Below, one piece after another: positions 411-64,000 of a stretch of DNA of 64,000 nucleotides. Below the pieces are notes generated by a model, which was not told the origin of the DNA, searched no databases, and saw nothing but the letters and a program-made list of their open reading frames with translations. The stretch's first letter is position 1. Every line of letters begins with the position of its first letter. A program made the position numbers and the translations under genes. Source of the stretch: Nitrospirales bacterium (GTDB lineage Bacteria; Nitrospirota; Nitrospiria; Nitrospirales; UBA8639); contig OY820905.2 in NCBI GenBank assembly GCA_963555755.3, forward strand, positions 3,936,001-4,000,000. Reading direction: 5' to 3'.

Positions 411-446
411 CCCTCGCCCCTTTGGGGAGAGGGTAGGGTGAGGGGG
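411..446. repeat. REP-like C/G-rich palindrome (CCCTCGCCCC TTT GGGGAGAGGG + tail)
   Basis: Hairpin followed by tagggtgagggg; same architecture as the repeats at 6999-7126, 19454-19574, 22672-23293 and 28158-28277. Confidence 0.6.
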
Positions 447-5265: not shown

Positions 5266-5341
5266 GTTTTCCCCTCATCCCAAAGGGACGAGGGAGTAGG
5301 ATCGAATTGTAAATTGTAAAAGGTTAAAAGACTACAGGTTT

Positions 5342-6998: not shown

Positions 6999-7126
6999 AC
7001 CCCTCCTTTGTAAGGAGGGGCGTAGGGGAGGTAGAGTCTTAGGAATTGGAGCATCGCTCCCTACATTGAGGAATCTAGCTGTTCGGGTTTTCTACCCCTC
7101 CTAGCCTCCCCTTACAAATGTGAGGG
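6999..7126. repeat. Pair of inverted REP-like palindromes
   Basis: cccctcctttgtaaggaggggcgtaggggaggtaga and the inverted ctacccctcctagcctccccttacaa. Confidence 0.6.
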
Positions 7127-12787: not shown

Positions 12788-14691
12788 CAGGGCTATTTCA
12801 TATTAAAGTGTAACTTTATAGATAATAAGGAATAATCGATTTAGGCTGGCTTTTTCTTTTCGTTTACGGCATACTCTTTTGCATGCCAGACGAATCGCCA
12901 AGCGGACAGCCGGACATTGATCTGAGGCAAGTCGTGGTTCGCCCAATTGTCCGAGACGAAAAGGACGCCTTCAAGACCCTTCTCGACAGACACCACTACC
13001 TCGGTCATGCCCCGCTGATTGGCCAATCGATACAATATCTCGCCTGTGTGCAGGATCGCTGGCTGGCCTTGCTGGTGTTTGCGGCGGCGGCCCTCAAATC
13101 GAGACCGCGAGACCACTGGATCGGCTGGCCCCCCTGTTTTCAATGGCAACGACTCCATTTACTGGCCAACAACACCCGGTTTCTCATGCTGCCGGGCTGT
13201 TCGCAAAAGAACCTCGCCTCGAAAGTCCTGTCGCTCTGCGCGAAACGGATCTCGTCCGATTGGCAACTGTACCACGGCTACCCCTTGCTCCTCTTAGAGA
13301 CCTTCGTCGATCCTGCCCGCTTCACCGGGACCTGCTATCGGGCCGCCGGGTGGCACGAGCTCGGTCTGACACGAGGGTTTCGCAAGTCGAACACGTGTTA
13401 TGTTCAGCATGAGAGACCGAAGCGCATCCTAGTCGTGCGGCTGCATCCCCAAGCCCGAGAGATCCTTGCACGCCCGATGCTTGATCAGCCCTATCAGAAA
13501 GGAGAAGCGCCTCAGATGAGATTGAATACAAAACAGACGGACTCCCTCTTTACGTATGTGGTGCAGCTGACCGATCCCCGCCATTTGCAAGGGCAACGGC
13601 ACACCCGACGCGCCCTCACGGCGATCATGTTCTGTGCCACCTTGTGCGGCGCGCGCGGCTATGAAGCGATCTCGGACTGGGCCCAGCAGTTATCGCAGCC
13701 GATGCGCAAGCGGCTAGGCTGTACTCAGCGAGGGGGGCGCTACCTCGTCCCGAGCCGCAGCACTCTTTACCGCTTTATCACGGCCGTCGACCCCTGTGAA
13801 GTCGATACCCTGCTCGGCCGGTGGCTGGACACCTTCGGCGGGGAGGATCAGGGCATTGCCATTGATGGGAAGACCATGCGGGGGACGTCGAAGGTCCCAA
13901 GCGAACAGCCCCACGTCCTCAGCGCCGTCACCCATCAAGCCGGGCGCCACCTCACCCAAAAAAAGTTCACTCCAAGACCAATGAGATCCCCTGCGTGCGG
14001 CCCCTGTTAGATGCGCTCGAGATCGCAGGGAAGGTGATCACGGCGGATGCGCTCCTCACCCAGAAAGAGATTGCCGAGTACCTGGTGCACGAACGCGGCG
14101 CCGACTTCGTCTTCACCGTCAAGGGAAACCAGCCCACCTTGAAGCACGACATTGAGGCCTTAGCGTTGCGAGCACGCCGGTGCGATTATGCCACCACCGA
14201 GAAAGGCCATGGGCAGATCACGACCCGCAGGATCTGGTGCGATGACTCCCTGAATGCCTATGTCAACTTTCCTCATGTCCAGCAAGTCTTCTGCATTGAG
14301 AGGGAAGTGACGCATCTCAAGCAGGGCCTCACGACCGTCGAAGCGGTCTGCGGTGTCACGAGTCAGTCCAAAGACAAGGCGGGGCCGAAGACCATCCTCT
14401 CGCAAAACCGAAAGCATTGGAGTGTGGAGAATAAGCAGCATTATGTGTTGGACGTCACCTTTGATGAAGACAGGAGTCAGATACGAAGTCTCAATGGCCC
14501 AATGGTCATGACCTGTCTGAGACGCTATGCCATCAGTCTCTTACGCCTGAAAGGCTACACCAATATCGCGCAGGCGTGTAGACTGCTCTGGGGCAAGCCC
14601 CATTTAGCCATCCGCATGGCCCTGCCCTGAAAAAGAGGGCACAAAAAACCTCATGGAATCCCTTGCTTATAAAAAGAATGAAATGGCCCTG
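12788..14691 (+). mobile_element. ISAs1-family insertion sequence (1904 bp) with a DUF4338-fused transposase
   Basis: Imperfect TIRs CAGGGCTATTTCAT / CAGGGCCATTTCAT; 10-bp TSD GATGTTTTGT at 12778-12787 and 14692-14701; second copy at 63211. Confidence 0.93.
12883..14630 (+). CDS. DUF4338(DruA-like)-ISAs1 transposase fusion, joined by a -1 frameshift at 13959-13965
   Basis: ORF1: HHYLG, RD.WIGW, NNTRFL, LLETFVD..RF.GTCY.AAGW, then DPR and IAIDGKTMRG. -1 frame: KTNEIP, ITADALLTQ, VKGNQPTL, HWSVENK.HYVLDVTFDED. Confidence 0.88.
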
Positions 14692-17857: not shown

Positions 17858-19341
17858 GAAAGTTTCTCCGGCCGAAGTTGGGGAAAGAGAATCACGTCAC
17901 GAATAGAGGCTTGATTGGTAAACAGCATGACCATGCGGTCGATTCCAATGCCTTCCCCAGCGGTTGGGGGCATGCCATATTCCAAGGCGCGGACAAAGTC
18001 TTCATCCAAATAATGTGCCTCGTCATCGCCAGCTTCGCGCTGGGCCATTTGTGCTTCAAAGCGTTGGCGTTGATCGATTGGATCATTCAACTCCGAAAAT
18101 CCATTTGCCAACTCACGACTCGCAATAAACAATTCAAACCGGTCCGTGAGTGACGGATCCGAATCCTTTCTCCGCGACAGTGGAGAAATCTCGGTGGGAT
18201 AGTCCGTGATGAACGTGGGTTGAATCAGTTTCGATTCCACGGTTTCCTCAAAGATGAGATTCAGAATGCCAATGAGGCTTGCGTCTTTGGGGATAGCGAG
18301 GCCGAGCTGTGTGGCTGCGGCTTCCGCCGCATCACGACTTTCCAACACGGTTCGATCGAATTGATTGTATTCTAACACGGCATCGAAATACGGAAGCCGT
18401 CGCCATGGAGGTGTTAGGTCGATCGTCTGGCCTTGGCATTCTAATTTCATGGTCCCACAAATGTCTTGCGCCAGTTTTCCAAAGAGCTGTTCGGTCAAAG
18501 CCATCAGGTCATTGTAGTCGGCATAGGCCTGGTAAAACTCCAGCATGGTGAATTCGGGATTATGAATTGTGGAGATGCCTTCGTTTCGAAAATTCCGATT
18601 AATTTCAAACACGCGCCGAAAGCCACCGACGATTAAACGTTTGAGATACAGCTCAGGGGCAACCCGCAGATACAAGTCGGTATCCAGCGCATTATGGTGG
18701 GTCACGAAGGGCCGGGCCGTGGCTCCGCCGGGGATAGGATGCATCATTGGTGTTTCGACTTCGAGAAAACCATTTTCCGTGAAATAGTTTCGGATGCCAG
18801 TGATCAACCGGCTCCGTGTCTCAAAAATTTTATGCACATCGGGATTCGCAATGAGATCCACGTACCGTTGGCGATAACGGGTTTCAATGTCCGTCAATCC
18901 ATGCCACTTCTCTGGCAGCGGGCGAAGGCCTTTCGATAAAAACGTCAGCTTCTGGACCTCGATTGTCAGCTCATCAGTCTTCGTGCGAAACAAGTGTCCC
19001 TCTACGCCGACCCAATCCCCCAAATCCAATTCTTGGGAAAGCTGAAAGTTGTCATCCCCAAGCACATCCTTTTTAAGGTACACCTGCAATCGATGTGCAC
19101 CGTCTTGGAGAGACGCAAACGCGGCCTTACCGAATCGGCGAAGCGCGACGATGCGCCCGGCAATGCGGCATTCAATTTTGTCTTGTTCCAGTTCCTCTTT
19201 GGTTTTCGATCCGTGAGAATTCACCAGCGGTTGTATTTGATGTGTTTCATCAAAGCGTGTGCCATAGGGTTGGATACCCATTGCTCTCAGCGTCTCGAGC
19301 TTTTGAATGCGTTGCGTACGTTGTTCGTTTATGTCTTCCAT
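17854..19341 (-). CDS. lysS: Lysine--tRNA ligase (class II)
   Basis: [28 protein letters not shown] and [15 protein letters not shown] motifs. Confidence 0.97.
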
Positions 19342-19453
19342 GAATCCATTCCGATGTGAAAAAAAGTTCGTGTCCGAAGGATAAATCTTCTTATTCCACG
19401 GTGCTTGCTACAGGGTGACCCATGAGGCCTGCCCTGAGTGTTATCGAAGGGTT

Positions 19454-19574
19454 CCCCAATTGGAAAAGGGGGGTAGGGGGATTTTCAAATTATGTATTCC
19501 TTTCAATACCCTGCTATTTGGGCCGGGGAGTATTTATTAAAATCCCCCTCAATCCCCCTTTTCCAAAGGGGGAG
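19454..19574. repeat. Pair of REP-like palindromes (DUF559-associated type)
   Basis: tccccaattggaaaagggggg..gggattt and the inverted aaatccccctcaatccccctttccaaaggggga. Confidence 0.7.
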
Positions 19575-19649
19575 ATTAAACGGAGGGTCGAGGGGGGATC
19601 TTATGGAGGATTTAATAATGCCTACGGTAAAGTCACCTGTTCAAAATGG

Positions 19650-20760
19650 TTACGATGTCTTCGAGGCCATCTGGTGTTTTAAATACGCTTCAATAAATGG
19701 ATCGAGCGCGCCATCCATGACGGATGCGACATTGCCCGACTCCTGGTTCGTTCGATGATCTTTGACCATTTGATAGGGTTGAAACACATACGATCGAATT
19801 TGGCTTCCCCAGGCAATGTCCTTTTTCTCACCAATAATATTTTGGAACTCCGCATCTTTTTTCTGCTGTTCGACTTCGTAGAGTTTCGATTTGAGTACCT
19901 TCATGGCATTCAACCGGTTTTGCAACTGTGAGCGTTCGTTCTGGCATTGCACCACAATACCCGTTGGAAGATGTGTCATGCGGATGGCGGTTTCCACTTT
20001 ATTCACGTTCTGGCCGCCGGCTCCACCGGCCCGAAACGTATCCACCCGAAGATCCTTGTCGTCAATCACAACCACCACTTCATCGTCGAGTTCGGGACAG
20101 ACCGAAACTGCGGCAAAGGATGTATGCCGGCGTTTGTTGGCGTCAAATGGCGAGATGCGCACCAAGCGATGCACGCCAGCTTCCGACTTCAAATAGCCAT
20201 AGGCGTATTCACCTTCAATCTGCAGCGTCACACTCTTAATACCAGCCTCGTCGCCAGGTTGTAAATCAATCGTGCTGACTTTGAACCCACGTTGTTCGGC
20301 CCAGCGAACAAACATGCGCATGAGCATTTGTGCCCAGTCTTGTGATTCCGTCCCACCTGCCCCGGGGTTGACGCCGAGAATAGCTGAGTTGGCATCGTGC
20401 TCACCGGATAGCAATTGCTCCGTGTGGAGTTGGTCGAGCACGGTCTCGAGTTCTTGAATGCCCTGGGTGAGTTCGAACTGAAGGTCGGGATCGTCTTCTT
20501 CACCAACAAGTTCCAGCGTGGCTTCGAGATCCGCTTGCTGGCGTTCAAAATCAGTGATGCGGGTCATCTCCCGTTCAATACTGGCTTTGCGGCGGCCGAC
20601 CTTGGTGGCCATTTGGGTGTTGTTCCAAAAACCGGGCTGAGCGCTTTCCCGCTCGAGTTCTTCTAATTCGTTGCGAAGCCGAGGCAGGTCAAAGACACCT
20701 CCGTAACTCTTGAATGTGGTCCCCGGTGGTTTGCAAACGAGATCGAATGTCCTCAAGCAT
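19650..20760 (-). CDS. prfB: Peptide chain release factor 2 with a programmed +1 frameshift
   Basis: ATG at 20760 ([10 protein letters not shown]...), then GGAGGTGT CTT TGA C site (CTTTGAC = 20694-20688); SPF and GGQ motifs. Confidence 0.96.
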
Positions 20761-20763
20761 GCG

Positions 20764-22386
20764 TCACTCCTTTGTGTCTCTGCGTGGTGAAGGGTATTGA
20801 AAGATGGTGTCTACCGCGGATGGTTTGCGGAAGAATCGTGTGAACAATAGCAAAAACACAGTCATTATAACACAGGCCCAGGCAAACACATCGCCAAATC
20901 GTGTGTAAAACGTTGAAGACGTGCCTAGTGGAATCGATCCAGTGATGGCTTGCTCGGTGAAAATGGGCGTGACGGCGATGATGTGTCCTGAAGGATCGAT
21001 GAATCCGGAAATGCCAGTATTCGCCGCGCGAGCAAAGGCCATTCGATTTTCTACGGCCCGAAACACCACCATGGCAAAGTGCTGGTACGGAGCTACAGTG
21101 TTGCCAAACCACGCATCATTCGTGATCGTCACCAAAAAATTGGAGCCTGCATGTGCCAGTTGCCGAACGAGATTAGGAAAAATCACCTCGTAACAAATCG
21201 CCACGCCGAATTGAACCTGTTGTTGGTCAGGCCCATGTGGAATTGAAAGCAAGGTCGGGCCTGGGCCTGGCTGAAAGTCACCAATGCCCACCACGAGTTT
21301 GTCCAGGAAGAAAAGAAATTGTTTGAGAGGAATGTATTCTCCGAAGGGGACAAGATGTTGTTTGTCATACCGCCCCGTGAGTTCACCGTCAGGCTGAAGC
21401 ACATAAGCGCTATTGAGTAAATACGGTCGGCCATCGTCATACCGACGAAGCGCCGGGCTTCCAAATATCAAGGGCAACTGCGCTTTCTCAACCATCTCCA
21501 CCACAAGAGACTGATAGCCCTGTTCCTGTTCGAACAGGAACGGTGTCGCGGCTTCAGGCCAGATGATCACATCAGCCCCTTCAGTCACTGTTTTCGTAAG
21601 TCGAACATATCGTTCAAGCGTGTCCACACGATACGCTGTGTCCCACTTGCGCGCCTGATCGATATTCGCCTGAACCACCCCGACGCGAAGTTTGGGTGCG
21701 CCGGAGAAGCTAGAAGAGTTGAGGAAAAAAAATCCGTAGAGCCAGACCACCAGTATAATCACGGTGGCTGCAGCTACGGGCTGCCAAGGTTGAAGAAGAG
21801 TGGCGCGAATCTTGGCCTTAGCCAAGATCCAACGGAGCAGAATAAAGAGCGCAACGTTGGCGAGAACAATGATAAACGATACGCCATAGACGCTGGTGAT
21901 GTCGGAAATTTGAATAATCGGAAGCCATTGAAATTGGGAGTATCCCAAGAGTCCCCATGGTAGGCCACTAAAAGCATAGGTCCGGAGGAATTCAAGCGAG
22001 ACCCACAAACACGGCGCCAGAATCCAGGCTACGTTGCCCCAGCGCTGCTCCATCCACACAAAGCCCCATGCATACATACCCACAAAGAGGCCAAGGTAGA
22101 CCGTCAGCAGAAACATGAGCGCGATGCTCATTGGAAGTGGGACTTGCCCATAGAGATGCATTGAGACCACGACCCAGTATATGGTCCCGGTGAACACGAA
22201 AAACCCAGCCAACCATCCCCGCCGAAAGGCCTGCCCAGACGTCACACCAATGAGCACCCGATGAAGAGGTACCAACGCAATCCAGGCAAGAATGCCCCAA
22301 TGAACACCCTCAAACAGGTTGGAAACGGACAGCGAATACCCTATACCCGTAAGCAGGCAATAGAACCACACACGTGTTTTCGACAT
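20764..22386 (-). CDS. lnt: Apolipoprotein N-acyltransferase
   Basis: [24 protein letters not shown] and TNDAWF motifs. Confidence 0.95.
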
Positions 22387-22439
22387 GACGCGGTACGGTA
22401 GGAGAAATGACTAAGAGATGCAAGGGAGGGGCATTCAAC

Positions 22440-22600
22440 CTAGAAACCGCAGTTGGATCACAAAAGTCCGCGCAAGCTCTTGGCGCACCTGGCACAATAC
22501 AAAAATGTCTCATCACCACCGAGGTGACCACGACTTTTTGTATTTCACCATGCACACCAATATCTTACACGTCTTTTTTGCGCCCAACTGCCGTTCCTAG
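22440..22600. mobile_element. MITE family R2 (CTAGAAACSGCAGTTGG...CCAACTGCCGTTYCTAG)
   Basis: CTAG-bounded TIR; copies at 23336-23762, 26610-26771, 57157-57199 (fragment) and 62666-62882. Confidence 0.82.
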
Positions 22601-22671
22601 GTTCAAAGACCCATCTGAAGCCGTTCTTAAAAAAGAGCGTGAGGGGAATTTTAAGGATTGAGAATTATGAG

Positions 22672-22761
22672 AAAATCTCCCCCAACCCCTCTTTTCCAAA
22701 GAGGGGAGCGTGGAGAGTCTTTCTTACTCCCCCTTTGGAAAAGGGGGACACAGGGGGATTT
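22672..22761. repeat. REP-like doublet downstream of the DUF559 gene
   Basis: aaaatctcccccaacccctcttttccaaagagggga + ~20 nt + tccccctttggaaaagggggacacagggggattt. Confidence 0.8.
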
Positions 22762-23147
22762 TAAGTTTTCAATTCAGAAGAGCTCGAAGCCAATTGCGAC
22801 GTGACGTGTTGGTAGATAGCCTCAATGACATTTTCAGTCTCTTGTAGCACTTGGCCGTTATGAAACCGCAGGACCGTCAACCTTTGATTGGCGAGAAAGG
22901 CATCGCGTTGGTGGTCTTTAACTTCGTGCTGGTGTTCGAAATGCTGTGCCCCATCAACTTCGATGACTAATTTTGCGGTAGGCGCATAGAAGTCCACGAT
23001 GTAATTCCCAATACGTGTTTGTCGGTAGAATTGGACTCCTTGGATCTGTTTTCTCCGTAAATGCCTCCACAATTTTAGCTCGGCCTCGGTCATGGATTTC
23101 CGAAGAGTTTGTGCCTGTTGCTTGAGTCGAGGGTTGTATTTCAGCAT
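22761..23147 (-). CDS. DUF559 (Vsr-like) endonuclease-domain protein
   Basis: LRKSMTEAE.KLW..LR, FYRQ..IGNYIVDFY, LVIEVDG.QH and D..RD..L....L.VLRF.N motifs; RBS GAGGA. Confidence 0.9.
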   Translation of the reverse strand: MLKYNPRLKQQAQTLRKSMTEAELKLWRHLRRKQIQGVQFYRQTRIGNYIVDFYAPTAKLVIEVDGAQHFEHQHEVKDHQRDAFLANQRLTVLRFHNGQVLQETENVIEAIYQHVTSQLASSSSELKT

Positions 23148-23163
23148 CAAAACCGTTCCTCAT

Positions 23164-23293
23164 TCCCCCTTAAGTAGGGGGATTTAAAAGGTTTGGAATG
23201 ATCGTAAAATCTCCCCTAACCCCTCTTTTCCAAAGAGGGGCGAAAAAAGAAATCATCTTTCCCCCTTAGAAAAAAGGGGACACAGGGGGATTT
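23164..23293. repeat. REP-like triplet upstream of the DUF559 gene
   Basis: Partial unit 23164-23185, unit 23206-23240 and inverted unit 23260-23293; direct repeat of the 22672-22761 flank. Confidence 0.8.
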
Positions 23294-23335
23294 AAAAGAC
23301 CTACAATCGCAACCACAATCTCGTCTAGCTTCAAC

Positions 23336-23762
23336 CTAGAAACGGCAGTTGGATCACAAAAGTCCGCGCAAGCTCTTAGGGTCCGTCACGAAATAACCGG
23401 GACAATTGGCCGAGACGATTTTGGAGCGAGCCAAGGAGCGAAGAGCGCGCATACCGGGAGTATGGAAGCGATGAGCGACGCCGGCGGAGCCCAAAAGCGT
23501 CCGGCCCTCCGGGGAGGCCCATCTTTGGCCCGGGGCAGCGTTGCTCCTCGGTCACATAGCCCCGCTAGGCTCCCTCGTCGCGCCTTGCCCCGATCACAAA
23601 TCTGGGCCTCCCAATTGTCCCGGTTATTTCGTGACGGACCCTGAGCGCACCTGGCAAAATACAAAAAGGTTTCATCACCAGAGAGGTGACCACGACTTTT
23701 TGTATTTCACCATGCACACCAATATCTTGCACGTCTTTTTTGCGCCTAACTGCCGTTTCTAG
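23336..23762. mobile_element. MITE R2 interrupted by nested MITE R4
   Basis: Both R2 halves align with 22440-22600. Confidence 0.82.
23379..23641. mobile_element. MITE R4 (263 bp) with perfect 31-bp TIRs
   Basis: GGGTCCGTCACGAAATAACCGGGACAATTGG at both ends; flanked by TTA and TGA. Confidence 0.88.
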
Positions 23763-23810
23763 GATCATGAATAGCCAGAATGGTAAATCATTCCAGGCTA
23801 ATGTAACAAA

Positions 23811-24719
23811 CTAGTTCAAGTGTGTGGTGAAAAAGTCCAGAACTCGAAGTTCGTAGGTTATCCCGGCAATGGCGTGGGCGTGACCGTGATCTGCCCCTGG
23901 AATGAGCCAGAGGGTGGTCAGTTCAGGATTCGCTTTGGCGAGAAGGGTCCGTGAATGATTGGCTGGAATTTGCGAGTCAGTCTCTCCATGGATGAGGAGG
24001 AGAGGGGTCGCAAGGGAGTGAATGGTATTTTCCGGCGATGCCTGATCTATGTCTAACCCTAACAACCCTTTGGCGTACAAACTAGTGAGGGCCACAATGG
24101 CCCAATTGAGAGGGCCGGGAATGAAGAAAAATTGGCTCTCCACGATTTTGGCGAGCGAGGCGAACGGACTATCCGCGACAATGGCTCGAATGCGTGGATC
24201 TTGAGCCACAATAAAGGTTGACCCACTCATGGAAAAGCCCATGGCCCCGATTCGAGTCGAATCGATATCCTTTCGCTGTTGAAGGTAGTCCAGGGCCGCT
24301 TGCACATCCAACTGTTCTCGAATGCCGACAGTGGTCATCCATCCGTCGCTTTCCCCGAAATACCGGAAATCTATCAACAATAAATGAAATCGTTGATGCA
24401 AAAAGAGAACGTGTCCCAGGATATTGGCTTTGTCGAACGGATATCCGTGACCGACGACAATAGTAGGAACTGCTTCTTTTTCTCCTGTTGCCTCCTGACC
24501 GGGTGCGCGTGCGAAAGGGGCCGCAGGAATAAACCAACCTCGGATGATGAGCTGATCCTTCGTGGTAAATGCCACTCGTTCATACGAAAGCCCAAAGCGG
24601 CTTGGATCGGCATCGGTTTTAAACCTGAAGGGGTGAATCCCTAATAGGAGGTTCAAAAGGGGAATGAGAAGCATGAATCCGAGAAAAAAGAGGAAATATT
24701 TATACATGGAGGATCGCAA
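23811..24719 (-). CDS. Membrane-anchored alpha/beta hydrolase
   Basis: GWFIP, DFR..GESDG, GFSMSG nucleophile elbow, LLIHG..D and GADH motifs. Confidence 0.88.
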   Translation of the reverse strand: MRSSMYKYFLFFLGFMLLIPLLNLLLGIHPFRFKTDADPSRFGLSYERVAFTTKDQLIIRGWFIPAAPFARAPGQEATGEKEAVPTIVVGHGYPFDKANILGHVLFLHQRFHLLLIDFRYFGESDGWMTTVGIREQLDVQAALDYLQQRKDIDSTRIGAMGFSMSGSTFIVAQDPRIRAIVADSPFASLAKIVESQFFFIPGPLNWAIVALTSLYAKGLLGLDIDQASPENTIHSLATPLLLIHGETDSQIPANHSRTLLAKANPELTTLWLIPGADHGHAHAIAGITYELRVLDFFTTHLN

Positions 24720-24853
24720 GTGTCGGGAGGCATTCAGAGTGAGGTTTGAGGTTCACCAAAGGAAACGTGCCGTTGGTAAGGGTCCGAGGGAAGCCATCCT
24801 TCAAGTGAGTGTCAGGGGCCGGCCTTTCTTGCCGTATCCGTCATGACGATGAA

Positions 24854-25121
24854 GGGTCGGTTGAATATTTCACGCCCTTGGCCAATACATGGTCGTGATA
24901 AGCAGACCATCATCAGGTGGAGGGAATGTTCAAAAAAGTTCGTTGTCTGACCCACCCTACCCAAGCGCGCCAACGGGCCTGCGGCCTTGCTGGACCTGGC
25001 TCCGCCGAAGCGGCTTCGCGAAGGCGAGCGGACCTTTTTGAACAGCCCCTTACGTCTGGCATCTTAGGTTATTGGAAAGTTGTCGGTAATTTGAAAAATT
25101 TTGGAATTATTCAACAGATCC
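24854..25121. mobile_element. Composite/degenerate MITE R1
   Basis: gggaatgttcaaaaaa...tttttgaacagcccc core with R1 arms on both sides. Confidence 0.65.
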
Positions 25122-25278
25122 TCCTTATGATTTTGCAGCTGCACGTAGCGATAGCATCCTCCAAACGGGGGGTCCGGTCAAGAGGTAAAATAGCCCCTGC
25201 GGCCTTGCAGAACTCGAGAGTCTGACCTAGGATGTCGTCACCAAATTTTACATTCAATTAATCTGGAGAAGTCCGTCC

Positions 25279-26199
25279 ATGCCTCGTGTCGTGTCGTTAA
25301 TCCCTAGCGCTACTGAATGGGTGTGTGCTTTAGGCGCACGGGACGATTTAGTGGGGCGATCGCATGAATGTGACTACCCTCAGAGTGTGACCGCTCTTCC
25401 CGTCTGCACATCCCCGAAATTCGATCCGCAAGGCAGCAGCCGGGACATTGATGATCGTGTTAAGAATCTTCTGCGTGATGCCGTTTCGGTCTATCGCGTG
25501 GATGTCCAACAACTCCGGGCCTTACATCCTGATTGTATCCTGACCCAAGCGCAGTGTGAGGTGTGTGCCGTGAGTCTGTCTGATGTGGAACAGATGGTCG
25601 GGGATTGGATAGGCACCAGGCCTTCGATTGTCTCGCTGTCGCCGAATCAGTTGCACGAGGTGTGGGACGATATCGGGCGAGTGGCTGGGGCTTTGGGTCG
25701 GAAGGAAGAAGGTGAGGCCTTATTGTCCACGCTTCGAAACCGCGTCGAGATCATCAGTGCACAAACCCGTCAGATTGGAGATCGTCCAACCGTTGGTTGT
25801 ATTGAATGGCTCGATCCTCTCATGGCCTCGGCCAACTGGATGCCCGAGCTGATCGATTACGCCGGCGGACAGAATGTGTTTGGTCATGCCGGTGAGCATG
25901 CACCATGGCTCACATGGGAGGCGGTTCAGAAGGAAGACCCTGATATTCTTCTATTGCTCCCCTGCGGCTTTTCTATCCCGCGGACACGCGAAGAAATTCA
26001 TCTTTTGACAGGCCAACCGGGGTGGAGTGACCTCAAAGCCGTGCAACAGGGGAGAGTCTATCTCACGGATGGCAATCAATATTTTAATCGTCCCGGACCT
26101 CGGCTGGTTGAGTCGGTGGAAATTCTGGCTGAGATCTTTCATCCGACCCTGTTTACGTTCGGGCACGAGGGAAAGGGCTGGGAGCGAGCTGTCAATTAG
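25279..26199 (+). CDS. Cobalamin/iron-siderophore-type ABC substrate-binding protein (BtuF-like)
   Basis: RVVSLIPSATE, VGRSHECDYP, CEVCAV and YFNRPGPRL motifs. Confidence 0.88.
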   Translation: MPRVVSLIPSATEWVCALGARDDLVGRSHECDYPQSVTALPVCTSPKFDPQGSSRDIDDRVKNLLRDAVSVYRVDVQQLRALHPDCILTQAQCEVCAVSLSDVEQMVGDWIGTRPSIVSLSPNQLHEVWDDIGRVAGALGRKEEGEALLSTLRNRVEIISAQTRQIGDRPTVGCIEWLDPLMASANWMPELIDYAGGQNVFGHAGEHAPWLTWEAVQKEDPDILLLLPCGFSIPRTREEIHLLTGQPGWSDLKAVQQGRVYLTDGNQYFNRPGPRLVESVEILAEIFHPTLFTFGHEGKGWERAVN

Positions 26200-26220
26200 G
26201 TTCCCGGGCAGGTCAGGTTA

Positions 26221-26367
26221 GGGTTCGCGCAAGAATCACTTCCCCTGGTTGGGTGCTGAGAAACCTGTCTGGCAAGGCGCGAGGACTACGCATATTCCTC
26301 GGTATGGAAAGGACGAGTACGGGGTGGATTGACGCCCAAACTGGGGGAGGTATTTTTGTACGAGCCC
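26221..26367. mobile_element. MITE family R3 (GGGYTCGCGCAAGAAT ends)
   Basis: 3-bp TSD TTA (26218-26220, 26368-26370); inverted relative to the copies at 30992 and 31222. Confidence 0.8.
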
Positions 26368-26556
26368 TTATTCTTGGAGGGGGGGCTTTCCCTCATCATG
26401 CTCATCGCTCAATTGCTTCACCCGTTCAATGAGCCGACCCAGTTCGTCCATGGTTCCGTATGCCTGGTTCAGCATTTCTTGAAAGCGATCGTGCTGATCC
26501 AGTTCCGCAAGGTTGCGGACAAGGCGAGCGTAACCATGGCGAGTGCGATCGTCCAT
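26368..26556 (-). CDS. Small hypothetical helical protein
   Basis: 62-aa ORF MDDRTRHGYARLVRNLAELDQ... with amphipathic pattern, between two MITEs. Confidence 0.45.
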   Translation of the reverse strand: MDDRTRHGYARLVRNLAELDQHDRFQEMLNQAYGTMDELGRLIERVKQLSDEHDEGKPPLQE

Positions 26557-26609
26557 TAGACGGGTCAAGGTCCCTTTGGGTGGTAGCGGTGGCGTGGGGT
26601 TTGATAATC

Positions 26610-26771
26610 CTAGAAACGGCAGTTGGATCACAAAAGCCCGTGCAAGTTCTTGGCGCACCTGGCAAAATACAAAAAGGTCTTATCACCAGATGAGGTAACA
26701 CGACTTTTTGTATTTCACCATGCACACCAATATCTTACACGTCTTTTTTGCGCCCAACTGCCGTTTCGTAG
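26610..26771. mobile_element. MITE R2
   Basis: Aligns with 22440-22600. Confidence 0.8.
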
Positions 26772-26913
26772 GAAAATGAACTCTTCTATATCCCTCTCGT
26801 CACTTTAGAAAAATTTCTTGCAATTGAGGAGTTGATTGCCATTTTTGAGATCTGTAGAATGCGCATCAATGTTGCCTCAAGAAATAAATGGCCGCAGAAC
26901 GTGGCCTAATCGA

Positions 26914-27546
26914 ATGAGGGGATTCTTGGATTATGTGAGAAAGACAGTGATAGTGGTGCTCCTGTTCGTGGGCCTGATCGGGAGTCTGCCTGCGCAATCG
27001 TTTGGTGCCGTGGAAGCTCAGAACATCATTGAGGCTGGGACCGTTGAGGTTGGAATCCAAGCGGGCTACTGGCAAGCATTCACGGGATTGGGCAATGCCG
27101 ATTCCTCTAACCGTAGTGCGGTCTTTGTCCTTCCACAGTTTGGGCTCGTCGTAACTGATAAAATTGAGTTGGGATATTTCAGCGGAGCGATTGAAGTCCT
27201 GGTCGAACCGGTCGCCGCCCAATTTTTCGAACCCTTTGATGCCACGTTGGCAGGGGTGTCTTTCGTGGGACGATATAATTTCCTGTCATTTGGGCGCTGG
27301 ATGCCGTATTTTGATTTTGGCGTGGGTCTGTCTTGGACCGACTTGGCCCCAAGGATCCCGGAACAAAGCACCCCGTTTGAATTCTTGTTAGAAACTGGTC
27401 CGGGCCTGCAATATTTCATTACGCAAGAAATGGCGATCACCGGCGCCCTTCGTTTGCACCATATCTCCAATGCCGCTTTAGGTGACCGCAATACTGGCAT
27501 CAATGCCATCCTCGGATTGATTGGATTTTCATATTACATCGATTAG
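26914..27546 (+). CDS. Acyloxyacyl hydrolase / PagL-like outer-membrane beta-barrel
   Basis: Signal peptide, alternating beta strands, C-terminal HHISNA...N.GIN motif. Confidence 0.82.
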   Translation: MRGFLDYVRKTVIVVLLFVGLIGSLPAQSFGAVEAQNIIEAGTVEVGIQAGYWQAFTGLGNADSSNRSAVFVLPQFGLVVTDKIELGYFSGAIEVLVEPVAAQFFEPFDATLAGVSFVGRYNFLSFGRWMPYFDFGVGLSWTDLAPRIPEQSTPFEFLLETGPGLQYFITQEMAITGALRLHHISNAALGDRNTGINAILGLIGFSYYID

Positions 27547-27579
27547 CCTGATGGTGCGCATCACTTCGTTTGACCATCA

Positions 27580-28167
27580 ATGAATCCCTTCCTGCCTTTA
27601 AGCACAGGCGCACGATTCTACGAAGAAATTGAACCTCGCCTCTCGGCCTTGGGTCTCGTTCGTGGACAGGCGACTCAAGCTAATCTCGTTCATGAGATTC
27701 AATCAACCTCCCTACCTGAACTGTTCGGCCAGAATGTGACGAGTGCTCCGATGGGGGCAGCCGTCAAAGCTGGCCTGTGTGTGGCCTTGGATGCGTGGGA
27801 TGACGCGCATGCCATTGCGCAAGATCTTGACACAGTTGAAGGCAGTTACTGGCATGGAATCGTTCATCGTCGGGAGCCGGATGCAGGGAATGCAAAATAT
27901 TGGTTTCGGCGCGTGGGCCAACATCCCGTCTTTCAACAATTAGGAAGTCATGAGACTCGTCAAACCCTGCCGGACACAACAGCCTTTGACCAAATCGTCC
28001 AATCTGGTTCGTGGGAACCATTTACCTTCATCGATCTCTGCATGGCATGTGAGAGGGGAAAAAAGACTGTACTCAATACGGAATTGCTGGCCCTTCAAAC
28101 CAAAGAAATCAAACTGTTGCTGAAGCATTGCATTCAAGGCACAATTGAACTCCAACTTCCCCCTTAG
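27580..28167 (+). CDS. Conserved hypothetical protein
   Basis: AH.IAQ....[27 protein letters not shown] conserved-looking motif. Confidence 0.75.
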
Positions 28168-28277
28168 AAAAAGGGGGATTGAGGGGGATTTAACAATCCG
28201 TGTCTCCGTCATCAATTCTAGCTCAAGAAAAGCTCATCATAAAATCTCCCCCAACCCCTCTTTTTCAAAGAGGGGAG
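28158..28277. repeat. Pair of REP-like palindromes (DUF559-associated type)
   Basis: ttcccccttagaaaagggggattgagggggattt and aaaatctcccccaacccctctttttcaaagagggga. Confidence 0.75.
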
Positions 28278-28287
28278 TAAGAGTGCC

Positions 28288-29292
28288 ATGAATAGTCTGA
28301 CTCTTTCCCAAAATATCATTCAGAGGTTTTGCGCAGAATATCTCACTTCTGTTTCTCCGATCATTGAACATGCCTCAACAGTTTCGCTGGCACAGCGCTG
28401 GAATTTGCTCTTTCAATGTTCGATTCAACCCAAATCTGAGTTGATCGATCCGGAAGTTCAAACCATGTTGATGGACCTGTATCAGGTGGCGACCCTGGAG
28501 GACTTATCCCCAAAATATGTGGGCGAGGGAGAGCGCTGGGGGGCGATCATTTCCCCTCGAATCGGGACATGGGCAAGGAAACGCGTCGCATGTATCGATC
28601 ATTGGTTTGTCGCCAATCCGGCTGACTTTTTTACCATGCTCGATCGTGTGAAGACGGAGTGGCCTTTTCCCTGTGATGCCATTCAACTTCCTATTTCCCC
28701 GAATCATCGTTCGGTTTCTTTTCTGGCGGAGTGGCCTCAGGCATGCTTGGAAGAATGTGTGTATATCGCTGACTGGGGTGCTACACGACCACCGTTGCTT
28801 TCCTCCAAAGTGTTCAAAGAGTTTTCTTTTGTTCACGATCAAGATCTAGATGCCTGGTGGCCAGACTTTTGCCACCTGTTAGAGCCAGAGTCCTTGGGAC
28901 TTGAGTCTGAGAACGTAACAAGTCAGTTACGAAAAGGCATGGAGCGAAGTCTCCACAGTGGAGGCATTCTCAACGTATATGACCATCAAGGCCTTGCAGG
29001 CCATGTGTCGTGGTATCGAGGCAGCGATGCGGAACTACTCATTCCGGAATGTTGGCAGATTCACTATATCTTGGTCCGCCCCAATCTTCGTGGTCAGAAA
29101 GTCGCTCAGTATCTCTATGCCTTGGCCGCTCGACGCATGAAATTGGAGCAAGTTTCTCTCGTGTGTGCACGTGTGCAAGGTGCCAATTTTCACAGTAGGA
29201 AAGCGCTCAAGGCTGTAGGTGCTGAAAATGTGTTGGAGTATTACACATTCCAGAGCGACTCCCAGGAAAGGTCCCGAAATTTTCTGCATTAA
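28288..29292 (+). CDS. Hypothetical protein with a C-terminal GNAT-like domain
   Basis: ILVRPNLRGQKVA motif A and N..S.KAL..VG motif B. Confidence 0.6.
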   Translation: MNSLTLSQNIIQRFCAEYLTSVSPIIEHASTVSLAQRWNLLFQCSIQPKSELIDPEVQTMLMDLYQVATLEDLSPKYVGEGERWGAIISPRIGTWARKRVACIDHWFVANPADFFTMLDRVKTEWPFPCDAIQLPISPNHRSVSFLAEWPQACLEECVYIADWGATRPPLLSSKVFKEFSFVHDQDLDAWWPDFCHLLEPESLGLESENVTSQLRKGMERSLHSGGILNVYDHQGLAGHVSWYRGSDAELLIPECWQIHYILVRPNLRGQKVAQYLYALAARRMKLEQVSLVCARVQGANFHSRKALKAVGAENVLEYYTFQSDSQERSRNFLH

Positions 29293-56991: not shown

Positions 56992-57254
56992 TTTGGACAA
57001 TATCGCGCTAAGATTTGGGTCAGATTTGGACGGACCGATTGAGAAAAACCCGAGGCATAGCACAGCTATGTTGAGGGTGTTTCAATTGAGGCCCGTTCAA
57101 AGATGGCCCGAAGATTGGATGCGAGATTGATCAAGTTATTCTCTCGCAGGTCCTAAGAGCTTGCGCGGACTTTTGTGATCCAACTGCTGATTCTAGGTTC
57201 AATGATGGCCCGAAGATTGGATGCGAGATGTCCAAGTTATTTTCTCTCAGGTCC
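56974..57254. mobile_element. Nested MITE cluster: R5 (56974-57153), R2 fragment (57157-57199), R5 right half (57203-57254)
   Basis: Direct alignment with 48642-48820 and 22440-22600. Confidence 0.8.
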
Positions 57255-62582: not shown

Positions 62583-62665
62583 CGCGTTCGGTACTGGGTT
62601 TGTTTCGTTGGTTTTGTTCGTATTGTTCTGTTCCACGGTTCCCTTGACCTCCTTCCTGCTTCACC

Positions 62666-62882
62666 CTAACAACACCAGTTGGATCACAAAAGTCCGCGCA
62701 AATTCTTGGCGCCCCCGGCGCAAGGGAAAATTGTCTCGTCACCACCAGGGATTACTTCCCCCCACCCTTGTCATTTCTCCCAAGGGTCGAAATGACAGAC
62801 CTGAGGTGACCACGACTTTCTGTATTGCACCATTCACCCCAGTATCTTACACGCCTGTTTTGCGCTCACCTTCCTTTTCTAG
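62666..62882. mobile_element. Degenerate MITE R2 with an inserted hairpin (62769-62797)
   Basis: cagttggatcacaaaagtccgcgcaa...gaggtgaccacgact...ctaggtt. Confidence 0.7.
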
Positions 62883-62927
62883 GTTCACCAATCACCACGC
62901 TGGGTTTTTACTTCAAGAATTTATATT

Positions 62928-63210: not shown

Positions 63211-64000
63211 CAGGGCTATTTCATATTAAAGTGTAACTTTATAGATAATAAGGAATAATCGATTTAGGCTGGCTTTTTCTTTTCGTTTACGGCATACTCT
63301 TTTGCATGCCAGACGAATCGCCAAGCGGACAGCCGGACATTGATCTGAGGCAAGTCGTGGTTCGCCCAATTGTCCGAGACGAAAAGGACGCCTTCAAGAC
63401 CCTTCTCGACAGACACCACTACCTCGGTCATGCCCCGCTGATTGGCCAATCGATACAATATCTCGCCTGTGTGCAGGATCGCTGGCTGGCCTTGCTGGTG
63501 TTTGCGGCGGCGGCCCTCAAATCGAGACCGCGAGACCACTGGATCGGCTGGCCCCCCTGTTTTCAATGGCAACGACTCCATTTACTGGCCAACAACACCC
63601 GGTTTCTCATGCTGCCGGGCTGTTCGCAAAAGAACCTCGCCTCGAAAGTCCTGTCGCTCTGCGCGAAACGGATCTCGGCCGATTGGCAACTGTACCACGG
63701 CTACCCCTTGCTCCTCTTAGAGACCTTCGTCGATCCTGCCCGCTTCACCGGGACCTGCTATCGGGCCGCCGGGTGGCACGAGCTCGGTCTGACACGAGGG
63801 TTTCGCAAGTCGAACACGTGTTATGTTCAGCATGAGAGACCGAAGCGCATCCTAGTCGTGCGGCTGCATCCCCAAGCCCGAGAGATCCTTGCACGCCCGA
63901 TGCTTGATCAGCCCTATCAGAAAGGAGAAGCGCCTCAGATGAGATTGAATACAAAACAGACGGACTCCCTCTTTACGTATGTGGTGCAGCTGACCGATCC
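63211..64000 (+). mobile_element. Second copy of the DUF4338-ISAs1 element (cut by window end)
   Basis: Matches 12788 onward; the only difference I noticed is ctcgtccgat versus ctcggccgat. Confidence 0.93.
63306..64000 (+). CDS. DUF4338-ISAs1 transposase fusion, 3'-truncated by window
   Basis: Same ATG and frame as 12883. Confidence 0.88.
   Translation, partial: MPDESPSGQPDIDLRQVVVRPIVRDEKDAFKTLLDRHHYLGHAPLIGQSIQYLACVQDRWLALLVFAAAALKSRPRDHWIGWPPCFQWQRLHLLANNTRFLMLPGCSQKNLASKVLSLCAKRISADWQLYHGYPLLLLETFVDPARFTGTCYRAAGWHELGLTRGFRKSNTCYVQHERPKRILVVRLHPQAREILARPMLDQPYQKGEAPQMRLNTKQTDSLFTYVVQLTD

Follow-up and report, generated by a model that had tools for sequence, protein, structure and literature searches.

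Predicted DUF559 nucleases and triplex-type DNA repeats form a candidate selfish cassette without a transposase

Stand-alone DUF559 genes from many bacterial phyla are accompanied by short intergenic repeats, and because the lineage of the enzyme and the type of the repeat track each other across many bacteria, we consider the DUF559 enzyme the likely missing partner of these repeats. Judged by their sequence, the 34-nt units are of class II intrastrand triplex design and not plain REP hairpins, and a DUF559 gene with a tail-inward pair of such units would make up a small, likely selfish cassette that has no transposase.

Results

A DUF559 gene framed by an inverted pair of repeats

The gene from which this study departs encodes a protein of 129 amino acids (Pfam E-value 4.9e-37) and occupies positions 22761-23150 (minus strand) of the window, by which we mean the whole 64,000-nt stretch of DNA that was analysed (G000:C1:3936001-4000000, from a genome of 4.62 Mb); its neighbours are lnt and an alpha/beta hydrolase gene. 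An earlier, sequence-only reading had described a lone DUF559 gene embedded in an array of repeat units that are also dispersed. That reading placed the gene, its six units and the dispersed copies correctly, but the gene is not alone, as the source genome carries six DUF559 genes and three fragments.

Two type-A units form a canonical tail-inward pair around the gene: one at 22728-22762, with its G-rich reading on the plus strand and its tail towards the 3' end of the gene, and one at 23206-23240, with its G-rich reading on the minus strand and its tail towards the 5' end. The TAA stop codon overlaps the tail of the first of these. A further inner unit (23162-23185, plus strand) was recognized previously, with its start placed at 23164, and proves to be a full unit minus 10 nt, which strain L301 has in complete form. 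Its purine run, read on the coding strand, immediately precedes the start codon and likely provides the gene with a ribosome-binding site. The outer units comprise type-A copies at 22672-22706 (minus strand, with an asymmetric stem and an exact mirror tail) and 23260-23293 (plus strand, a near copy of 22728-22762), together with a degenerate unit at 22620-22652 (plus strand) that has a weak hairpin and an eroded tail. The array on the left of the gene is a direct repeat of that on the right (83% over 65 nt), so the spacers of about 20 nt, once described as unique, are not. Promoter and terminator scans gave chance-level results only.

The gene-free copies reported at 28158-28277 and 19454-19574 are likewise present. 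The former is a tail-inward doublet with a 55-nt spacer; in the latter, the type-A unit at 19454-19487 lies between two IS200-type end hairpins within a decayed composite (approximately 19385-19540, minus strand), and the adjoining type-A unit at 19540-19574 (minus strand) sits in the gap between prfB and lysS. Three more sites had been taken for looser relatives of the same unit. Two of them belong instead to distinct repeat types: a type-B unit at 411-446 (plus strand), of the same type as the units of DUF559 genes L001 and L002, and a type-C doublet at 6999-7126, of the type found at DUF559 gene L005, in which 7000-7031 passes our strict test and the second unit is degenerate. The third, 5271-5300, is a hairpin that fails the strict test.

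The window also holds a 168-nt palindromic miniature element with CTAG-containing ends at 22439-22606 (relatives at 23330-23777, 26604-26785, 57126-57204 and 62660-62897), which is missing in strain L301, so that its arrival postdates that of the cassette. An exact 300-nt direct repeat, found at 12788-13087 and, 50 kb away, at 63211-63510, is probably part of an insertion sequence or of a duplicated gene.

The repeat has a predicted triplex design

On its G-rich strand each unit runs in the order pyrimidine arm, loop, purine arm, loop and mirror tail. The description of the unit as a REP-like palindrome captured the hairpin and missed its third segment: the C-rich "leader" mirrors the arm of the stem and varies together with it, which makes the unit a triplex-type motif and more than a palindrome. 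Among 355 distinct units from DUF559 flanks, arm and tail share their first non-G position in 241, against a mean of 73 and a maximum of 99 in 1000 permutations, and the tail matches the arm at 6.1 of 7 positions in mirror orientation compared to 3.8 of 7 when read directly. The mirror signal is found in types A (140 of 193 units, against 57), B (51 of 90, against 19) and C (28 of 40, against 11), with type A weaker once distinct patterns are collapsed (13 of 59, against a mean of 6.5 and a maximum of 16), and the mirror tail covaries at both ends of the cassette. With the best register chosen, the tail base opposite G is G in 1793 of 1898 cases and the base opposite A is A in 344, T in 215, G in 12 and C in 15. 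The occurrence of T opposite A would fit a purine-motif triplex on the G-rich strand, and we consider it likely that the repeat folds into three-stranded DNA.

A count in which the purine arm stays intact in 45 of 46 mismatches was set aside as this property is built into the detector; in an unbiased version, purine-breaking changes numbered 11 against 85, mostly owing to one type-B variant, and 10 against 21 for type A alone.

The E. coli TM motif has been reported to fold by CD and NMR (Holder et al. 2015; PMC4666352), and in vivo footprinting described in the same paper gave no sign of the E. coli triplex. This in vitro demonstration covers only the E. coli type-B motif; for types A, C and D we infer triplex folding. 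Type-B units of the present genome, such as that at 411-446, fit the published TM_ECO consensus, from which the type-A units of the window gene depart by a shorter G-run and an A/T-rich stem top. Within the accessible portion of PMC4666352, no transposase was found near TM motifs and their origin was left open, and its main text, so far as available, names no partner protein and contains neither "ycjD" nor "nuclease".

Repeats accompany DUF559 genes across phyla

We assembled 155 DUF559 loci, made up of the six genes of the source genome, the 69 top matches in its phylum and, from 580 relatives across phyla, the best 80, with the three fragments of the source genome and weak or fused domains left out. 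Units were located with a detector that replaced a first, regex-based one by which most units had been missed. A unit lies within about 240 nt of the gene at 149 of the 155 loci and on both sides at 111, and the density of units is far higher near the genes (421 in 73 kb) than farther away (31 in 189 kb). The nearest unit has its tail directed inward in 114 of 130 upstream cases and 121 of 130 downstream cases. Under the strict test, units adjoin 139 of the 155 DUF559 genes, drawn from many phyla, compared to 1 of 30 RAYT-like loci, and the same test was positive at 2 of 20 Y1 or GIY-YIG loci of the source genome itself. The enrichment at DUF559 homologues that was anticipated from the window alone is thereby borne out, and no RAYT or Y1 gene framed by these repeats was found: Y1 homologues are present in the flanks of none of the 155 loci. 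A unit is found 283 nt from one IS-like Y1 copy, whose two near-identical copies are far from any.

RAYT was rejected as a driver of the repeats on the strength of the single positive among 30 RAYT-like loci and of four genomes (G033, G138, G115 and G118) that carry a DUF559 gene and repeats and have no PF01797 match.

Across the source genome the type-A pattern has 102 matches, compared to 0 and 0 in two shuffles, and strict units on contig C1 number 190 against 1 in one shuffle. All but 12 of these (178 of 190) are not wholly within open reading frames of at least 200 amino acids, and the genome holds 136 unit clusters, doublets included.

The DUF559 gene of E. coli K-12 is ycjD (37% identical), which is present in 3378 of 5426 E. 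coli genomes and missing from about 38%. In K-12 a damaged unit overlaps its stop codon and TM no. 9 is found about 170 nt downstream of the gene; the upstream side shows no evident unit. A literature search whose reach excluded most subscription journals found no published link of DUF559 or ycjD to these repeats.

Other DUF559 lineages (L133 and L125-L129) are flanked by hairpins with different leaders, in two-hairpin forms that fall outside our rules for types A to D. At L052, L160, L125, L127-L129, L002, L056, L135 and L138 the DUF559 domain resides in a long open frame (450-1000 codons), which suggests that it is fused in frame to neighbouring genes or that reading continues into them. Separately, a stand-alone GIY-YIG gene of the source genome (L027, G000:C1:2204228-2204446) has palindromic repeats of its own on both sides (GTCATTTCGA ... 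TCGAAATGAC ends), a layout that parallels the nuclease-plus-repeat arrangement of DUF559.

Repeat type and abundance follow the DUF559 protein

Repeat types A to D were assigned by rule, which gave 134 labelled rows and left out 21 that were unlabelled, other or mixed. Mapped onto the DUF559 protein tree, which has few columns and many open forks, repeat type requires 7 changes compared to 55.7 (48-62) in 300 shuffles. The four repeat types track four protein lineages, and do so within one genome too. When a locus is compared with the nearest protein from a different genome, the types agree in 53 of 56 cases; compared with a further DUF559 locus in its own genome, they agree in only 52 of 144. 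Since type follows protein kin across genomes and not genome-mates, host make-up offers no explanation. The source genome alone contains 92 type-A, 60 type-B and 31 type-C units, each type with its own gene.

A match in type beside the gene could arise from linkage alone, and genome-wide abundance therefore carries more weight. In a sample of 151 genomes of the phylum, many of them drafts and the related ones not independent of each other, at least five type-A or type-B matches are found in 46 of 58 genomes with a stand-alone DUF559 gene and in 12 of 93 without. Permutation within families yields a mean of 35.6 and a maximum of 44 in 20,000 rounds, compared to the observed 46. All 14 genomes whose gene is close by score to that of the window have type A (median 16), as against 19 of the other 44 gene-positive genomes (median 0). 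The association has exceptions on both sides. Nine of the 58 gene-positive genomes have fewer than three type-A or type-B matches, a count from which type C is left out, and repeats also occur where no gene was detected, with 25 type-B copies in the closed genome G076, 18 type-A copies in G008 and 10 type-C copies in G153. Collectively, repeat sequence co-varies with DUF559 phylogeny and repeat abundance tracks the gene, the two relationships that the sequence-only reading had singled out.

DUF559 is a predicted Vsr-fold enzyme

A structure model of the window protein (pLDDT 93) matches 3HRL (E 1e-8), I-Bth0305I (3R3P; E 6.6e-4) and, weakly, Vsr (E 0.22), in keeping with the initial assignment of DUF559 as a Vsr-like domain and with the accessible text of PMC3424549, which assigns Vsr, DUF559, 3HRL and 3R3P to a single clade. 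A model built from the single sequence was discarded (pLDDT 41). Residues D53, E64, D66, H70 and D79 are conserved in 152-155 of the 155 rows, and these putative catalytic residues resemble the EDxHD set as described in the available part of PMC3239194. DUF559 is the only Pfam family that the protein matches; it has no Y1 match and no NF047646 match, and we regard it as a predicted nuclease of the Vsr/EDxHD fold with its putative catalytic residues intact.

DUF559 is under purifying selection in most of the pairs compared, with dN/dS values of 0.04-0.37 in 17 of 21 pairs; two pairs are saturated and L001/L002 gives 1.6. The window gene differs from its counterpart in strain L301 by three amino-acid changes and no silent ones.

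IS200 ends as a probable second route of dispersal

The proposal that DUF559 may spread the repeats is supported in part, in that repeats are tied to the gene, but about 40 of the 92 type-A copies in the source genome ride in IS200 ends, so dispersal cannot be credited wholly to DUF559. GC-rich IS200-end hairpins flank 39-42 of the 92 type-A units compared to 4-5 of the 98 others. The composite spans about 130 nt, consists of gene-less IS200 ends with one type-A unit between the two hairpins, and occurs at about 40 sites on C1 (for example 892600-892750), with triplex-free versions near C1 929600, 2136800 and 2288600. In other genomes its hairpins end an IS200 element that has TnpA; the best TnpA match in the source genome is 40% identical. 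Because the type-A unit occupies a fixed place within the composite, these data suggest that one unit was captured between IS200 ends and then spread by TnpA, an HUH enzyme, which probably accounts for the roughly 40 type-A copies inside gene-less ends. Repeat counts of a single genome can thus mix two routes of dispersal, which need to be told apart in any test of the model.

A more general role for such enzymes would have an HUH transposase (IS200/IS605 TnpA or RAYT) moving the repeats in trans, with DUF559 as cargo or accessory, like TnpB for IS605. Besides the type-A units that lie between hairpins known to end true IS200 elements elsewhere, this reading can draw on genomes that lack DUF559, where repeats occur in 10 of 55 with and 3 of 38 without RAYT-like genes. 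Among genomes that have DUF559, however, 42 of the 49 that also carry RAYT-like genes have repeats, as do 7 of the 9 that lack them, and G033 has 440 pattern matches and no PF01797 match. The flanks concern only 5 of 98 non-A units even at the higher count, and the type-A-rich genomes G026, G047, G105, G001 and G093 have 0 matches to the composite hairpin, which makes the composite route a local one. Moreover, IS200 end hairpins lie in the same orientation whereas the ends of the DUF559 cassette are inverted, and DUF559 loci have no Y1 neighbours. We therefore regard an HUH engine acting in trans as unlikely.

Cassettes occupy many sites, some of them old

The 155 DUF559 loci fall into 116 site groups, and in 27 loci from relatives no cassette was found beside lnt. 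A sister cassette at another site in G156 shares 68% amino-acid identity and has lost E64 and H70; at the same site the source genome has tandem type-A units alternating with 43-codon DUF559 fragments (G000:C1:1525119-1526300, L007-L009). L001 and L002 represent a type-B cassette duplicated in tandem. Some sites are of old standing and passed on by vertical descent, namely the L004 site, common to the source genome and G152, and that of the 28158 doublet, which is found at the same place in G156 and is represented by one damaged unit in G155. In four congeners the prfB-lysS gap is empty and measures about 60 nt. In the source genome it contains a pair of type-A units and in G155 (L291, G155:C1 about 1950-2060) a pair of type C, and two different types in one gap point to independent arrivals.

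Relatives of the source genome were too diverged, or carried other inserts, to resolve a clean empty versus filled site or a target duplication, and in the two E. coli strains without ycjD that we viewed an efflux cluster takes its place, so that no clean empty site is offered there either. An excised circle was likewise not found. In a comparison with strain L301, divergence across window positions 20420-23330 is lowest at the cassette (5 of 712 nt) and climbs along lnt (63 of 1623 nt overall, up to 45 of 636 nt); in this one pair the low divergence could reflect homing and also fits ordinary recombination.

The persistence of some sites is what would be expected if DUF559 were a host-useful nuclease that resolves triplex or hairpin roadblocks at replication forks, with repeats that multiply through their own instability and a gene kept as antidote. 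Purifying selection in most pairs, the instability of TM loci in E. coli (as given in the accessible portion of PMC4666352) and the rarity of DUF559 on plasmids, where 38 of 72,556 records have it, and on phages (4 of 50,697) point the same way. A host factor, on the other hand, would not need to be framed by its own substrate in a fixed inverted orientation, nor does this account sit well with 116 site groups, with several lineages per genome that each have their own repeat type, or with the E. coli genomes, more than a third, that do without ycjD. We hold a host resolvase to be improbable.

Less probable still is that the units are RNA-level cis elements, serving as ribosome-binding site and 3' stabilizing stem, and that gene-free copies are passive debris of deletion and recombination: an in-frame start codon 11-26 nt after the upstream hairpin at the majority of 108 loci, the extension of 66 of 124 reading frames into the downstream unit, the eroded-fragment tandem array where G156 has a whole cassette and the lack of an Rfam family match (none across window positions 19000-29000) can be cited for it, but the design lies on opposite strands at the two ends, such that only at the upstream end does the mRNA have the G-rich form, both ends show covariation of the mirror tail, purine-motif triplexes are disfavoured in RNA, and 136 clusters are many for the debris of six genes.

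Discussion

We lean, by a modest margin over its being wrong, towards a transposase-free selfish cassette whose nuclease likely nicks the folded ends, after which host repair would carry out the copying. The predicted nuclease would bind and nick its own repeat type when this is single-stranded and folded, and host recombination or repair would then copy the cassette, or gene-less doublets, to new sites. A hydrolytic enzyme of the PD-(D/E)XK type is not known to form a covalent link to DNA, and DUF559 could therefore not rejoin strands as RAYT does. We put forward more tentatively, and with somewhat less than even belief, a broader view of the cassette as pan-bacterial mobile DNA that lacks a transposase and whose end signal, a folded triplex, is read by a Vsr-fold nuclease, with a triad pattern specific to each lineage.

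If true, bacterial intrastrand triplexes would have their first natural protein partner, and the origin of TM, BoxC and PIT repeats would be explained. The pairing supplies a specific candidate substrate for a widespread domain of unknown function, and a candidate engine for repeats whose source was left open in 2015. A natural nuclease that recognizes a folded DNA triplex would also show that in bacterial cells these structures do form and are of consequence. Both ideas can be tested directly with ycjD of E. coli K-12 and short oligonucleotides.

Several known systems resemble the DUF559 cassette in part. Ends-only derivatives of IS200/IS605 (PATEs), as far as the accessible text of PMC7290912 describes them, share with the composite described above end hairpins in the same orientation and the absence of a gene; the DUF559 cassette differs in having inverted ends and no TnpA, which makes the composite a local side branch. 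With I-Bth0305I and Vsr, on the available portions of PMC3239194 and PMC3424549, DUF559 shares the fold and an acidic-His-Asp catalytic set. It differs from them in that it has no intron or intein, no separate N-terminal DNA-binding repeats and no adjacent methyltransferase, and, unlike an EDxHD homing endonuclease, the window gene is a free-standing 129-codon reading frame in an intergenic gap, flanked by repeats.

The parallel to RAYT and REP drawn in the sequence-only reading stands for the layout and fails for enzyme chemistry, copy number and repeat class. As in the REPIN-RAYT system, or REPtron, so far as it is covered by the accessible part of bioRxiv 10.1101/2021.07.10.451892, a small gene lies between inverted copies of a short extragenic repeat that is also dispersed, doublets without the gene occur, repeat type is tied to protein group and repeats are fewer where the gene is missing. 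The RAYT enzyme, however, is of the HUH class with a catalytic tyrosine whereas DUF559 is Vsr-like, RAYT is single-copy at a fixed site whereas DUF559 is multi-copy at many unrelated sites, and the units described here carry a mirror third arm.

In the repeats themselves, the likeness is to TM and TM_ECO motifs, and also to PIT and BoxC. Within the available portion of PMC4666352, these share with our units the same order of arm, loop, arm, loop and mirror tail, G.G-C, A.A-T and T.A-T triads with a tolerated G.A stem mismatch, and an intergenic placement as singles and inverted pairs, with type B conforming to the TM_ECO consensus and the type-A units of the window gene falling outside it.
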